In this document: piece by piece, positions 14,751 to 18,582 of the stretch
How the letters are laid out: each line of letters starts with the position of its first letter
Numbering within the stretch: position 1 is the stretch's first letter
Made by a program: the position numbers and the translations under genes
Notes under the pieces: model-generated
Database searches by the model: none
What the model was told of the DNA's origin: nothing
Seen by the model: only the letters and a program-made list of their open reading frames with translations
Origin: a virus
Lineage: Duplodnaviria; Heunggongvirae; Uroviricota; Caudoviricetes
Strand: one strand, 5' to 3'
DNA length: 43,137 nucleotides
Virus record (IMG/VR): IMGVR_UViG_2541047960_000005

Positions 14751-14776
14751 AAACCCGCCGTCGAGCGGGTTTTTTT
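14751..14776 (+). terminator. intrinsic terminator, candidate tR' at the start of the late operon
   Basis: Hairpin AAACCCGC-CGTCGA-GCGGGTTT followed by T7. Confidence 0.55.
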
Positions 14777-15113
14777 GTGCCTGAACGTTAAATGCGCTGG
14801 TGGTTGTGAATGCCGACTGCGGCGGTATTTTGGCGTGACGGCGCAGGTGCCGTATACCGATGTCTGGACGCATAAACCGGTGCAGTTCTATCCCGGGAAA
14901 CATCCGTGCGAAAAACCGGCAGAAATGCTGCAGCAGATAATCAGCGCAAGCAGTCGTCCGGGTGACCTGGTTGCAGATTTTTTTATGGGGTCAGGTTCAA
15001 CAGTTAAAGCTGCACTGGCACTGGGCCGTCGTGCTACAGGCGTTGAGCTGGAGACTGAACGTTTTGAGCAGACGGTTCGGGAAGTTCAGGATTTAGTCAG
15101 TCAGAACGGATGA
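14775..15113 (+). pseudogene. C-terminal remnant of a DNA N6-adenine/N4-cytosine methyltransferase
   Basis: Product contains HPCEKP and DFFMGSGSTVKAA (AdoMet-binding FxGxG) but lacks the N-terminal catalytic (D/N)PPY region; the frame opens directly after the terminator. Confidence 0.55.
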
Positions 15114-15153
15114 TATTGCAGAATTAGTTACGTACCGTTATTATCCTGCGCCC

Positions 15154-15229
15154 GGCCCTTTAGCTCAGTGGTGAGAGCGAGCGACTCATAATCGCCAGGT
15201 CGCTGGTTCAAATCCAGCAAGGGCCACCA
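15154..15229 (+). tRNA. tRNA with anticodon CAU, most similar to E. coli tRNA-Ile2 (lysidine) rather than tRNA-Met
   Basis: 76-nt cloverleaf: acceptor GGCCCTT/AAGGGCC, anticodon loop CTCATAA, T-arm GCTGG-TTCAAAT-CCAGC, 3' ACCA. Confidence 0.88.
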
Positions 15230-15238
15230 TATCACATA

Positions 15239-15315
15239 CCGCCATTAGCTCATCGGGATAGAGCGCCAGCCTTCGAAGCTGGCTGCGCGGGGTTCGAGTC
15301 CTCGATGGCGGTCCA
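15239..15315 (+). tRNA. tRNA-Arg (anticodon UCG)
   Basis: 77-nt cloverleaf: acceptor CCGCCAT/ATGGCGG, anticodon stem CCAGC/GCTGG with loop CTTCGAA, T-arm CGGGG-TTCGAGT-CCTCG, 3' TCCA. Confidence 0.8.
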
Positions 15316-15593
15316 TTATCTGCATTATGCGTTGTTGGTTCTGATGAGTGAATCATTGTCTTTTGAGCAACAGGCTATCATATAAGATAGCCTCAGACTT
15401 CCTTGTTTATTCTCGCCGGATGCTTCGCAGATATTTGCAGGCATCTGTATGCAGAGGTATTATTGCGGCATATATCATCCGGAAAAATAAAAACTACATG
15501 CTGATCCGGAGATGATAGTTACAAGTCCTCCCGGATCCCGCATATTTACTATATTTTATAGATAATTGTTCTTGTTAATATGGAGATGGATAA

Positions 15594-16022
15594 ATGTATT
15601 GCCGTGCTGTACCAGTTCTTGTTTTGATATTAGCCAGTCTGACAACTGGCTGCACAAAAGATGTATCGACAAATAATTATGATGCTTCTCTGTATCACTC
15701 AGATAAATTAATAAAGTCGCAAAATTTGAGCTCATCGGAACGTACCCCTGATGCCAGTGAAGAAATCAGGCAGTATGCCATTCAGGTCAGGAAAGCCATA
15801 GAAGAACAGTTAAAGGATGCGAGTAAGTATTCAGGAAAAGAGTGTTCACTGAGAATGTATATGGCCCCGAATGGTCTTCTGCTACAGGTTAAAAGAGAAG
15901 GTGGAGACCCCGATTTATGTCGTGAAGCGATGAATGCGGTGAAGCATGCTGATATACCAGTTCCGCCGTCTCCGGAAGTATATAAAGTATTTCACAATGG
16001 AGTGCTGGATTTTAAACCGTGA
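15594..16022 (+). CDS. lipoprotein carrying a TolA C-terminal (domain III)-like domain
   Basis: Signal MYCRAVPVLVLILASLTTGC; the C-terminal ~70 aa YSGKECSLRMYMAPNGLLLQVKREGGDPDLCREAMNAVKHADIPVPPSPEVYKVFHNGVLDFKP aligns closely with my recollection of the E. coli TolA C-terminus (...YAGKTCTLRIKLAPDGMLLDIKPEGGDPALCQAALAAAKLAKIPKPPSQAVYEVFKNAPLDFKP). Confidence 0.75.
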   Translation: MYCRAVPVLVLILASLTTGCTKDVSTNNYDASLYHSDKLIKSQNLSSSERTPDASEEIRQYAIQVRKAIEEQLKDASKYSGKECSLRMYMAPNGLLLQVKREGGDPDLCREAMNAVKHADIPVPPSPEVYKVFHNGVLDFKP

Positions 16023-16368
16023 TTCTACATCTTTGCAGTAAACAATAATCATAATTGCATGTTTTTTCTGTGGTGGGGCATTTGGCTTCTGTTGCCTGCG
16101 ATGTATTGTGGTGCTGGGATCAGCCTGTAGAAAATGCACACAGGTGTGAAGTGTTAAATTCCTCACAACTCAGAAAGCGGAATGTTGTCCTGTTAGCGGC
16201 GAATTTGTTAAAAGAGAACGGCATGGTGAATCCCCCTGAGCGGAGGGGCGACTGGTGATGGTATAATCTCTGATTATCAAAACGAGAATGACGCGGGTTC
16301 AGTGTCACCGGGCTGAACTCACCGGGAGGCACCCGGCACCATGCAATGGCACATAGCGCCACTCTCCA

Positions 16369-16392
16369 GCCCCTCTCCGGAGGGGCTTTCTT
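16369..16392 (+). terminator. intrinsic terminator-like hairpin
   Basis: GCCCCTC-TCCG-GAGGGGC followed by TTTCTT. Confidence 0.4.
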
Positions 16393-16620
16393 ATGGACAA
16401 AAAAAGCCCGCGCTGGGAGACGCGGGCGGCAAGGAATAAACAATAAAACGTGAAGTAATATTTCAGCTGACGAATAATACCCTATAGTAATCACTCTGCG
16501 CAACTGCGCGGTCTTTTTCGAATTGCGGGCTGTCGTCTCTCTTCTGCCATTGTCCTGTAACTTCCGGACTTCAGCCCGCTCCTTATTTTACTCACAATAT
16601 TATCCCGGCCGGGAGGATTC

Positions 16621-18582
16621 ATGGCATTTAAACACTATGACGTGGTCAGGGCGGCATCGCCGTCAGACCTTGCGAAACGACTGACACAAAAACTGAAGGA
16701 GGGGTGGCAGCCATTTGGCAGTCCGGTGGCCATCACGCCTTATACCCTGATGCAGGCCATTGCGGCGGAAGGTGATGTCACCACACCTGTGGTGGTGAAG
16801 CCGTCGGATGGAGAAGGCGCAGTTATCAGCACCACCAGCAACCCGGAGTATTACTTTGTTGTTGCCCTGGCCGGGCAGTCAAACGGTATGGCGTATGGTG
16901 AAGGGCTTCCGCTGCCGGAGACATATGACCGTCCGGACCCGCGTATTAAACAGCTGGCGCGTCGCAGCACTGTCACGCCGGGTGGTGCGTCCTGTAACTA
17001 CAATGACATTATTCCTGCGGACCACTGCCTGCATGATGTTCAGGATTTGAGTAAGTTTTCACACCCGAAAGCCAGCGCAGCTCAGTATGGATGCGTGGGG
17101 CAGGGATTACATATCGCGAAGAAATTGTTGCCGTTTATTCCGGCGAATGCCGGTATTCTTCTGGTTCCGTGCTGCCGTGGTGGTTCTGCATTTTTGGCGG
17201 GCGATGAAGGTACCTTCAGCGAATCCACCGGCGCAAGCGAGACCTCGGCACGCTGGGGTGTAGATAAGCCACTGTACAAGGACCTGCTTACCCGTACTCA
17301 GGCCGCACTGAAGGCCAACCCTAAAAATATTCTGCTTGCAGTGGTCTGGATGCAGGGCGAGTTTGATTTGAAACAGGGTGCATACGCCACTCAGCCGGGG
17401 CTGTTTGATTCCATGGTGGAAAAATATCGTTCTGACCTGTCGGAATTCGGAGGTCAGTGTCTCGGGGGCTCTCCGTCATCAGTTCCCTGGATTTGTGGCG
17501 ACACGACCTACTACTGGAAGCAGACTTATTCTTCGCAATACGATGCGGTGTATGGTGCATACAAGACGAAATCCGCAAAAAAAATCTTCTTTGTGCCGTT
17601 TATGACGGATGAAAACGGGCGAAATGTGGGTACCAACGAGCCGTCAGAAGATCCGGATGTTGCGGATATTGGGTATTACGGAGCTGGTGGTCGAACGGAC
17701 GCCAAAACCTGGACGACGGCTGACCGTAAAACGCATTTTGGATCATGGGCACGTCGTGGGATTATTTCCGACCGTCTGGCAACGGCGATTCTTGTGCATG
17801 CCGGGAGAAACGCTGAATTCATTACCGGAAAACAGCCTGATACGGTGAAGCCCACCGGACCTTCCGGTGAAGGTACGGAGAGAGAGCCGGAAGCCCCGGT
17901 CAGTAACCGAACCCTGATGAGTCTGCTGGCGTCCGGCGAAGACCTGGCATCACAGGGCTGGCGCTATTATCACAAACCGGCGAGCGGAGACAATGTTAAC
18001 AAAAACATTGCTGAAGCGGTGGTCAGTGATGCGGGGGCTACGGGAGGTAAGGCCCTGCAACTGAATAAACCGGAAAACCACATCTGGTTTCTGGAGCATG
18101 ATGCAGCCGGACAGGGAGTGGAGTTACTGAAGAAGGGGGGACGTGTGAGCGTACGGTTTAAGTTGCCGGGTTCACTGGTGCCGAATCAGTTTGCCCTGGG
18201 CATTTACTGGCAGTTGTCGTCCCTGCCGGAGGGAGTGACGCTGGCAGAGGAAGGCAACGACATGCTGATGTCCTTCTTCCTGCAGACGGATGCGACGAAC
18301 CTGAACGCGATGCACCACAAGAAGCCGAATGCGAAGCTGGATACGTTCGGGGTCTTTGATAACGGATGGCACACACTGGCTTTTGAGTTTGCCGGAAACA
18401 ACAGCATTCAGGTGACGCCGGTACTGGATGAGAAACGGGGGACGCCGTTCACACTGGTGAAATCTCCGGCATCAGGGGCGGCGGACAAACTGCAACTGAC
18501 AGGCATATCAAAGGCGGCGACATATACGCTGCTGATTGACAGTGTGAAGGTGGAAGTGAACAACGCGGATGCTGCGGCATGA
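16621..18582 (+). CDS. nanS: prophage NanS-like sialate O-acetylesterase (SGNH/DUF303 hydrolase)
   Basis: 653 aa; GGGAGG SD; catalytic-block motif VVALAGQSNGMAYGE about 85 aa from the N-terminus; large gene after the tRNAs as in Stx-type prophages. Confidence 0.7.
   Translation: MAFKHYDVVRAASPSDLAKRLTQKLKEGWQPFGSPVAITPYTLMQAIAAEGDVTTPVVVKPSDGEGAVISTTSNPEYYFVVALAGQSNGMAYGEGLPLPETYDRPDPRIKQLARRSTVTPGGASCNYNDIIPADHCLHDVQDLSKFSHPKASAAQYGCVGQGLHIAKKLLPFIPANAGILLVPCCRGGSAFLAGDEGTFSESTGASETSARWGVDKPLYKDLLTRTQAALKANPKNILLAVVWMQGEFDLKQGAYATQPGLFDSMVEKYRSDLSEFGGQCLGGSPSSVPWICGDTTYYWKQTYSSQYDAVYGAYKTKSAKKIFFVPFMTDENGRNVGTNEPSEDPDVADIGYYGAGGRTDAKTWTTADRKTHFGSWARRGIISDRLATAILVHAGRNAEFITGKQPDTVKPTGPSGEGTEREPEAPVSNRTLMSLLASGEDLASQGWRYYHKPASGDNVNKNIAEAVVSDAGATGGKALQLNKPENHIWFLEHDAAGQGVELLKKGGRVSVRFKLPGSLVPNQFALGIYWQLSSLPEGVTLAEEGNDMLMSFFLQTDATNLNAMHHKKPNAKLDTFGVFDNGWHTLAFEFAGNNSIQVTPVLDEKRGTPFTLVKSPASGAADKLQLTGISKAATYTLLIDSVKVEVNNADAAA

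Follow-up and report, generated by a model that had tools for sequence, protein, structure and literature searches.

What occupies the toxin position in a prophage that is laid out like a Shiga toxin (Stx)-converting phage, and what might the occupant do? The locus that raises this question lies in IMG/VR virus record IMGVR_UViG_2541047960_000005, a stretch of 43,137 nucleotides that we call the window and that is a lambdoid prophage of Escherichia coli. A preliminary description of the locus had given the order terminator, tRNA-Ile2(CAU), tRNA-Arg(UCG), cargo gene, NanS-like esterase, lysis cassette, and we found each of these elements in its place. Position 14751 is the first base of the terminator hairpin, position 18582 is the end of the esterase stop codon, and the lysis genes lie beyond 18582. 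Four features were absent from that description: a methylase remnant, the loss of argO, the small RNA (sRNA) element STnc100, and a porin gene between Q and the terminator block. We consider it probable, with good confidence, that this part of a lambdoid prophage of the Stx-phage type (933W/Sp5) comprises the leader of the late operon and a cargo slot, and that the slot holds a candidate TolA decoy. The architecture itself has already been described, and most complete E. coli genomes have it; only the cargo is a new lead.

The stx position is a cargo slot between conserved anchors

The late region of Stx phages of the 933W/Sakai Sp5 type, represented here by the Stx2a phage LC567842, has the order Q, terminator block, methylase, tRNAs, cargo, STnc100, nanS-p, lysis genes. 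The window has the same order, with 76 to 97% DNA identity in the shared parts. It differs from the Stx phages in having neither stxAB nor argO, in keeping only a 3' remnant of the methylase, in its QuuD-type Q, in the porin gene that follows Q, and in its TolA domain III (TolAIII) cargo. Window 14720-14815 aligns to LC567842 2712-2818, the segment directly after Q, at 78.7% identity. The next segment, 14817-15336, contains the methylase 3' end, the first two tRNAs, and 8 nucleotides (nt) of the third, and it aligns to LC567842 4001-4520 at 95.2%. STnc100 and nanS-p follow in 16163-17808, which aligns at 76.5% to LC567842 5966-7630, a segment that starts 45 nt past stx2B. From window position 18019 and LC567842 position 7796 onward, the remaining late genes are 80 to 97% identical. 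The unmatched 826 bp between the flanks (15337-16162) sit exactly where LC567842 carries argO, stx2A, and stx2B (4521-5965).

The flanks of the slot therefore align to an Stx2a phage, and the synteny with Stx-phage late regions that had been proposed is present. A Q gene and a pR'/tR'-type leader are found upstream, apart from the intervening porin gene, and STnc100, nanS-p, and an S-R-Rz lysis cassette are found downstream, as in an Stx-type late region. No homology to LC567842 4521-5965, and thus to stxA or stxB, was found in the window, and the slot holds one open reading frame (ORF) with a TolA domain. For these two reasons, the element is Stx-phage-like and not an Stx phage. The placement of a TolA-like lipoprotein in the toxin slot was borne out as well; the ORF there encodes a TolA C-terminal domain and a lipobox and lies between Stx-phage-like flanks.

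The region from 14400 to 18700 matches the chromosome of strain GN02050 at 100% identity, and it is at least 99% identical in 21 complete genomes. In GN02050, the prophage and its attachment site adjoin mlrA. It also has matches in 389 phage records, chiefly of Stx1- and Stx2-converting phages (megablast against 50,697 phage records), and in 4912 of 5426 complete E. coli genomes. Because the region recurs in so many phage records and genomes, its layout is no chance pattern. A preprint describes how STnc100/PasD, the sialate esterase, PasA/C, and the holin-lysozyme genes are linked and gives Stx phages as the likely origin of this linkage (bioRxiv 10.64898/2026.05.13.724894). Stx-less prophages that carry tRNAs, STnc100/PasD, a sialate esterase, and lysis genes have been described too (PMC10462455; bioRxiv 10.64898/2026.05.13.724894). 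The diversity of nanS-p next to stx2a is covered in PMC10462455.

In comparisons with all six loci of other content, homology stops on the left at 15336 and picks up again on the right at 16145-16163. These loci are LC567842, phi296, mEp460, a uropathogenic E. coli (UPEC) prophage with TerB and DUF3927 genes, the O104:H4 2009EL-2050 prophage, and a Qin-like prophage. We surveyed the content between the tRNAs and the esterase or holin in a spread sample of 3661 genomes matching 14800-18000. Between the same anchors we found Stx2AB (with or without IraM), TerB plus DUF3927, IraM plus DUF3927, tolA-like genes, small hypothetical genes, or nothing. In the empty slot of the O104:H4 2009EL-2050 prophage, STnc100 lies 75 nt after the third tRNA and is followed by the esterase. 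The Stx-negative relatives (phi296/Traversvirus tv86, O104:H4 2009EL-2050, and the UPEC prophage) share the anchors, esterase, and lysis genes with the window, but their slot has other content or is empty, and they have three tRNAs where the window has two. The slot is thus bounded by the tRNA array on the left and by the STnc100/PasD-type element on the right. It is solely the content between these anchors that varies among related prophages. Such different occupants between the same anchors uphold the earlier idea of a hot spot that swaps cargo, and they support cargo exchange at this slot. The exchange presumably proceeds by recombination in the conserved flanks. However, the left junction lies 8 nt inside argO, which suggests at least one illegitimate step rather than a clean homologous exchange. 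In this lineage, argO would have been cut after base 8, and an 809-bp low-GC cassette would have come to stand in the place of argO and stxAB.

STnc100 is present in all eight loci that we compared, every time at the cassette border. It directly follows stx2B in LC567842, is present in two copies around the gap of the UPEC locus (L006 2919-3611), and forms five tandem copies in an O178:H19 prophage (L009 2813-5764). In three loci it lies upstream, and not downstream, of the tolA-like gene: mEp460 (L004 4700-4890), the Qin-like prophage (L008 4490-4680), and a Rac-like prophage (L005 5650-5836). STnc100 elements may therefore be recombination anchors of the slot. The element carries a 3' terminator hairpin of its own (16368-16387). 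STnc100 was the only sRNA that an Rfam E-value search detected in 14300-19300; AsxR and AgvB gave no match. Directly 3' of STnc100 is a strong terminator-like hairpin on the minus strand (16406-16427; GCCCGCGTCTCCCAGCGCGGGC followed by T7), which is nearly identical in the Stx2a phage. At the matching position of the UPEC locus, Rfam reports AsxR on the minus strand at 63 bits, and the window has none at an E value of 0.1 or less.

The cargo is a predicted lipoprotein with TolA domain III

The cargo scored 81.9 bits against Pfam family PF06519 (cut-off, 25), and the TolAIII chains in the PDB match it at 8e-27 and share its C-terminal end. Residues 54 to 142 align without gaps to residues 333 to 421 of E. 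coli TolA, with about 55% identity over 89 residues and the same C terminus. A signal peptide with a lipobox extends to residue 20, and a disordered linker of about 30 residues (21 to 51) connects it to TolA domain III (54 to 142). The lipobox reads L-T-T-G-C20, with Thr and no Asp at position +2. Among 12 homologs whose overall identity goes down to 65%, residues G19, C20, and T21 never vary. The protein is therefore predicted to sit, lipid anchored, on the inner face of the outer membrane.

The cargo keeps both TolAIII cysteines, K379, and K396. Its C-terminal strand, L417-D418-F419-K420-P421, is identical to that of TolA and is the best-conserved part of the protein. In TolA, backbone bonds of D418 and K420 hold the N1 domain of g3p, and proline mutants of these two residues lose binding of ColN and g3p and have a tol phenotype; TolB uses the same site, and TolA β3 mutants that are unable to bind TolB leak alkaline phosphatase (PMC4339652). 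The N terminus of TolB binds TolAIII through strand augmentation (PMC8928145).

The cargo shares domain III with E. coli TolA (PDB 1TOL, 1S62, 3QDP/3QDR, and 2X9A), but not domain I and the long helical domain II, through which TolA is coupled to TolQR and the proton motive force. From its sequence, it is predicted to be at the opposite membrane and to carry out no energy transduction. Because it has neither domain I, the inner-membrane helix, nor domain II, the cargo is not a TolA orthologue, despite its PGAP/RefSeq name, "cell envelope integrity protein TolA."

The cargo gene has a Shine-Dalgarno sequence and an intact ORF. Its GC content of 39 to 42%, against 50 to 60% in nanS-p and the late genes, is a deviating composition of the kind seen in morons. 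Ratios of nonsynonymous to synonymous substitution rates (dN/dS) among cargo alleles of 65 to 94% identity are 0.19 to 0.40, which indicates that the family is under purifying selection. Compared with one allele (L010 1278-1706), the gene is a mosaic, with a dS of 0.027 in codons 1 to 53 and of 0.30 in codons 54 to 142. Two unrelated versions of the signal peptide and linker (MYCRAVPV... and MGFRSASI...) are joined to similar TolA domains. A recently captured fragment of the host tolA gene was ruled out as the source, given the identity of only about 55% to E. coli TolAIII and alleles that have diverged to 65%.

Relatives of the cargo are common in E. coli

Of the 5426 complete E. coli genomes, 1131, about one fifth, carry the cargo cassette or gene, as does a single isolated phage, mEp460. 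Commensal, uropathogenic, and Shiga-toxigenic strains of E. coli commonly have it. In the window and in the mEp460, Rac-like, and Qin-like loci, a tolA-like gene lies between Q and the holin gene, and in the last three loci it is followed by a gene for a second, more divergent TolA-domain lipoprotein. An exhaustive HMMER search returned 330 cluster representatives. Among the top 150, 83 were short and contained TolAIII only; 49 of these 83 have a lipobox, and the C terminus of most is an LDFK-like strand. Frameshifts or truncations affect several of the tolA-like homologs in the database. We ruled out that the family is exclusive to phages, because a 135-residue TolAIII lipoprotein with 43% identity and the C-terminal end LLDFKP is encoded in a non-phage chromosomal context on a 93.6-kb JGI metagenome contig (L015 7001-7408). 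The cargo family in the PHROG database (PHROG 5772) is labelled "unknown function." A full-text literature search, which mostly left subscription journals outside, returned no paper on a prophage lipoprotein with a TolA or TonB domain.

A protein of the same design is encoded further downstream. It is a TonB C-terminal-domain (TonB_C) lipoprotein whose gene lies just after Rz/Rz1 in a patch of 42 to 45% GC. Phage 21, four Stx1a phages, JLK-2012, and CP-933N-type phages encode this protein too. PHROG 1267 calls it an "Rz-like spanin," a label that probably stems from the position of the gene. The porin gene, the TolA cargo gene, and the TonB_C lipoprotein gene are all low-GC inserts that touch envelope import machinery.

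Possible roles of the cargo

We suggest a scenario in which late transcription would start in the block at about 14690 and be halted at the tR'-type hairpin (14751-14772). After SOS induction, Q would modify RNA polymerase, and the resulting read-through of the hairpin would lead to expression of the two tRNAs first, then of the cargo, STnc100, NanS-p, and finally the lysis genes. The cargo would then present a TolA domain III that is lipid anchored through its flexible linker and has no coupling to TolQR. Beneath the outer membrane, it may capture the TolA-binding epitopes of group A colicins or of Ff-type g3p, and/or the N terminus of TolB. Captured invaders would fail to reach energised TolQRA, and the lysogen would be tolerant. 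The TonB_C lipoprotein may do likewise against Ton-dependent invaders, and a second lipoprotein of this design in one prophage lends the decoy idea support by analogy. That the cargo is an outer-membrane-tethered TolA decoy, giving tolerance to group A colicins and/or Ff-type phages, is a reasonable candidate that we put forward tentatively. The wider idea that TolA and TonB C-terminal domains on outer-membrane lipoproteins form an unrecognised class of envelope morons, acting as decoys or as a late shut-off of Tol-Pal, is possible, but on the doubtful side.

Cor of phi80 and N15 and Llp of T5 are small phage lipoproteins that bind the receptor FhuA. The cargo is likewise a small, phage-encoded lipoprotein, predicted to lie in the inner leaflet of the outer membrane, and by analogy it is a candidate import blocker. 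However, it has no sequence kinship with Cor or Llp, it imitates the periplasmic tip of an energy transducer, and its exclusion role is putative. Titration through the same interface has a precedent, since periplasmic g3p-N1 sequesters TolA, which makes cells tolerant to colicin A and lowers phage uptake by 4 logs (PMC10424213). The cargo would be the mirror image: there a ligand titrates TolA, whereas here a copy of TolA may titrate the ligand or TolB.

Several observations weigh against a decoy acting in the lysogen, or against the account of the slot to which it belongs. The colicin A box of TolA, 375-LLDIKP-380, reads LLQVKR in the cargo, with D377 changed to Gln and P380 to Arg, and K368 is replaced by Tyr. 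An AlphaFold2 model has predicted local distance difference test scores of 82 to 90 for residues 52 to 142 and below 50 for residues 1 to 51. The top five Foldseek matches of this model are TolAIII structures, but with template modeling scores of 0.3 to 0.47 and root mean square deviations of 5 to 8 Å. The fold assignment therefore rests on sequence, and the model adds nothing to it. A defence role presupposes expression in the lysogen. The only promoter-like site upstream of the cargo gene (15434-15463) matches at 9 of 12 positions and is no commoner than in shuffled sequences, and no terminator parts the cargo gene from STnc100. We found no hairpin in 16023-16190, and the next terminator after the cargo gene is that of STnc100. 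Four alleles share 99% identity over the 300 bp that precede the gene, so that conservation is uninformative about a promoter. PADLOC has no model or match for the TolA-like, TonB-like, or second TolA-like proteins. The metagenomic relative has a CLC channel gene on one side, an OpuA-type ABC transporter operon on the other, and no phage genes in its neighbourhood. If the decoy bound TolB, it would harm the envelope of the host too, which better matches a lytic role. Finally, the direction and mechanism of cargo exchange are read from end states only, and the left junction falls within argO.

A lytic role is the main alternative to the decoy. The cargo may be a late-expressed lysis or release factor that titrates the TolB N terminus away from TolA and loosens the outer membrane. 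Pal would then be locked in TolB-Pal and the tether lost, with blebbing, leakage, faster rupture, and release of phage and periplasmic contents. This reading agrees with the place of the gene inside the late operon, between Q and holin, in all four loci named above, and with its having no convincing promoter or terminator of its own. It also agrees with the effects of interfering with TolB binding. According to the passage of PMC6195910 that cites Levengood-Freyermuth 1993 and Wan & Baneyx 1998, E. coli cells lose periplasmic protein when over-expressed TolAIII is exported to their periplasm, and the leaky TolA β3 mutants described above do not bind TolB (PMC4339652). The TolB-binding strand is the best-conserved part of the cargo, and the TonB_C sibling, with its spanin label, lies in the lysis cassette. 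On the other hand, that cassette is complete without the cargo (holin, endolysin, Rz, and Rz1), and most lambdoid phages have no cargo gene, which is thus dispensable. Lysogenic-conversion morons typically have a low GC content and behave as cassettes, as this gene does, and a related lipoprotein is found in a non-phage chromosomal context. We regard a release factor as rather unlikely. The decoy and the late antagonist are not exclusive readings, because Tol-Pal inhibition itself yields colicin tolerance.

The locus could also be a decayed Stx prophage that lost stx by deletion, with functionless captured DNA as the cargo and relics as the tRNAs. Decay is visible in the methylase, truncated by a deletion of about 1.2 kb, in argO, in a frameshifted portal gene of the near-identical GN02050 prophage, and in the broken tolA-like homologs. 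However, instead of a plain deletion the site has an 809-bp stretch of unrelated DNA, in which the ORF is intact, a Shine-Dalgarno sequence is present, and the lipobox and disulfide pair are conserved. The dN/dS values hold across alleles that are only 65 to 94% identical, 1131 of 5426 genomes and an isolated phage carry the cargo family, and tRNA-Ile2 scores 72.5 bits and is 100% identical to its Stx2a-phage copy. Nothing indicates that stx was ever present in this lineage. Mere decay is thus very improbable, and the candidate decoy remains the reading that we prefer.

tRNA genes and codon use

The first tRNA was called Met(CAT) by ARAGORN and tRNA-Ile by PGAP in every matching genome. It is identical to the first tRNA of LC567842. 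Its identity is 89.5% to E. coli ileX, 69% to the elongator tRNA-Met, and 63% to the initiator tRNA-Met. It has the pairs C4:G69 and C5:G68 of an Ile2-type body. We accept it as tRNA-Ile2, of the predicted lysidine type. The second tRNA has the anticodon UCG in the window and in phi296 and UCU in LC567842 (4423-4499), and only a few other positions differ. The LC567842 copy thus shows a single-base anticodon switch, which gives that phage two tRNA-Arg(UCU) genes. In the window, the Stx-phage triplet ileZ-argN-argO is reduced to two intact tRNAs and the first 8 nt of argO, which begin 13 nt after tRNA-Arg with the spacing and sequence found in LC567842.

The preliminary description had suggested that the tRNAs aid expression of AT-rich morons, and that AUA and CGA enrichment in the cargo would reveal this. 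The AUA part holds. ATA makes up 28 codons per 1000 in the cargo gene (four of its six Ile codons) and 2 per 1000 in five flanking host genes (Fisher p = 0.0016); the values are 5.7 per 1000 in the structural late genes and 47 per 1000 in stx2A. The CGA part fails, and CGA enrichment in the cargo was ruled out, as the gene has no CGA codon. By the wobble rules, anticodon UCG is assumed to read both CGA and CGG. The cargo gene has neither codon, and stx2A is not enriched in them. CGG makes up 19.5 codons per 1000 in the structural late genes, against 7.5 per 1000 in the host genes (p = 0.0015). AGA and AGG are not enriched in the host genes, the structural genes, or stx2A. The cargo gene has four AGA/AGG codons, which would call for argO, precisely the tRNA that is lost here. 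No codon enrichment, including that of CGA and CGG, was found in nanS-p. Thus, tRNA-Ile2 fits the AT-rich cargo, as it does stx2A, whereas tRNA-Arg(UCG) fits the structural genes better than the cargo, because CGG is enriched in the former and CGA and CGG are absent from the latter.

One preprint reads tRNA hits in these flanks, near Pas sRNAs, as insertion hot spots (bioRxiv 10.64898/2026.05.13.724894), in line with the tRNA genes being leftovers of tRNA-associated integration sites and not phage-borne translation aids. However, both tRNAs have their full length and score highly, their anticodons correspond to codons that the cargo or late genes over-use, and their genes are internal to the prophage, between Q and the lysis genes and a long way from the integrase end, with the attachment site next to mlrA in GN02050. 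They are also found at the same internal position in isolated phages (Stx2a phages, phi296, and mEp460). We give the integration-site explanation very little credence and favour translation aids.

Leader, esterase, and other parts of the prophage

The coordinates of the features are collected in Table 1. The block at 14690-14783 has 78 to 84% identity to the segment directly 3' of Q in LC567842, phi296, and the O104:H4 prophage. When the window was aligned with these three Stx-type loci, a kept core of about 60 nt emerged, TAAGAGTGGTTAC...CACACAGCTTAAACCCGCC-loop-GCGGGTTTTTT, in which the terminator stem is invariant and the loop is different in each sequence. The terminator scan read the window's hairpin as AAACCCGCC-GTCGAG-CGGGTTT followed by a T-run. 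In lambdoid phages, pR', the Q-utilisation site, and tR' lie at this position next to Q, and we infer a promoter function for the block by analogy. Folding of the tR' leader gave no significant structure besides the terminator hairpin (z = -0.28). Q directly abuts the block in the Stx-type loci, whereas the window has 1.6 kb with the porin gene in between. The intergenic region upstream of the porin gene (14325-14690) is 27% GC and holds the region's best σ70-like match (14533-14561, 11 of 12 positions, plus strand). We dropped this match as a candidate pR', as it lies in the porin intergenic region and is not conserved with the Stx phages.

After the block, about 1.2 kb is deleted relative to LC567842, comprising a 198-nt ORF and the 5' two-thirds of the methylase gene. 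Window position 14817 pairs with LC567842 4001, and the preceding block pairs with 2712-2818. PGAP flags the remnant as "incomplete, missing N-terminus."

Along its entire length, the esterase shares 63% identity with the NanS-p of the Stx2a phage, and it keeps the GQSN motif. It matches the NanS catalytic structure 3PT5 at 1.4e-118 and the NanS-p C-terminal domain structure 6YP6 at 1.3e-60. These similarities agree with its assignment as a NanS-p O-acetylesterase. The lysis region is 80 to 97% identical to that of the Stx2a phage.

The early region contains Ea22-like genes, DnaC-like and DnaB-like replication genes, and a DUF968 gene. Rfam matches to isrK (61.6 bits) and to the C4 antisense RNA (82.4 bits) lie at 6563-6751 on the plus strand, where an Ash/Rha-type ORF (6506-7360) has its 5' end. 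This unit is a P1/P7-style c4-antirepressor immunity module within a lambdoid prophage, as is also found in phage phi296. The GN02050 prophage is at least 99.6% identical to the window in the late region, from 12671 on, and differs in the early and replication region, where it has a DEAD-box helicase and a toprim gene in place of the DnaC/DnaB-type and DUF968 genes. The mosaic junction is the 5' end of Q.

Table 1. Features of the window and, in the last row, of related loci
Feature	Coordinates	Strand	Basis and remarks
CI/LexA-type repressor gene	4697-5428	-	
Late antiterminator Q, QuuD type	12671-13054	+	Pfam Phage_antitermQ 5.6e-40; PGAP quuD in near-identical GN02050 prophage
Lc/NmpC/OmpC-type porin gene, low-GC moron	13242-14324	-	Pfam Porin_1 8e-151; PGAP "porin OmpC"; GC 39-44%
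pR'/tR'-homologous block ending in terminator hairpin and T-run	14690-14783	+	Terminator scan; homology to Stx-type phages
3' remnant of N6/N4 DNA methyltransferase, pseudogene	14817-15113	+	Pfam N6_N4_Mtase, profile positions 135-220 of 221 only
tRNA-Ile2, anticodon CAU, ileZ type	15154-15229	+	ARAGORN; Rfam (72.5 bits); PGAP tRNA-Ile
tRNA-Arg, anticodon UCG, argN type	15239-15315	+	ARAGORN; Rfam (55.1 bits); anticodon loop CTTCGAA
First 8 nt of argO (UCU), GCGTTGTT; left breakpoint of cargo replacement	15329-15336	+	Match to LC567842 argO start
Cargo cassette in stx position, 809 bp	15337-16145	+	GC 39-42%; unrelated to Stx2a phage
Cargo: 142-residue predicted outer-membrane lipoprotein with TolA domain III	15594-16022	+	Pfam TolA C-terminal 3.8e-23
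STnc100/PasD-type prophage sRNA element, right anchor of slot	16192-16398	+	Rfam RF02076, 162.4 bits
NanS-p-type sialate O-acetylesterase, 653 residues	16621-18582	+	Pfam DUF1737, SASA, and DUF6645 carbohydrate-binding
Lysis region: DUF1378, DUF826, holin, DUF1327, 161-residue ORF, lysozyme, Rz/Rz1	18719-21843	+	Pfam; ORF list; PGAP
P21-type holin	19261-19476	+	Pfam
Lysozyme	20506-21039	+	Pfam
Rz	21376-21843	+	Pfam
Rz1, embedded in Rz	21596-21781	+	ORF list
TonB C-terminal-domain lipoprotein, 109 residues	22179-22508	+	Pfam TonB_C 1.3e-14; lipobox L-V-M-G-C, Thr at +2
Second TolA-domain lipoprotein, 124-131 residues, in Rac-like (L005), mEp460 (L004), and Qin-like (L008) loci	L005 6547-6921; L004 5580-5975; L008 5391-5765		Lipobox F-V-A-G-C; C terminus GFDMRG, not LDFKP

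Implications

The stretch from the tRNA array to nanS-p in Stx-type prophages is a cargo slot of which stx is one occupant, a view that is useful for annotation and for thinking about stx mobility. The TolA-domain lipoprotein and its TonB-domain sibling are the only lead beyond the known layout, and they are testable candidates for a decoy or a Tol-Pal antagonist. Roughly one in five complete E. coli genomes has the TolA type, which belongs to a family of at least 49 lipobox-bearing sequence clusters. If real, either activity would represent a new principle of prophage competition in the gut, mimicry of the tip of an energy transducer.

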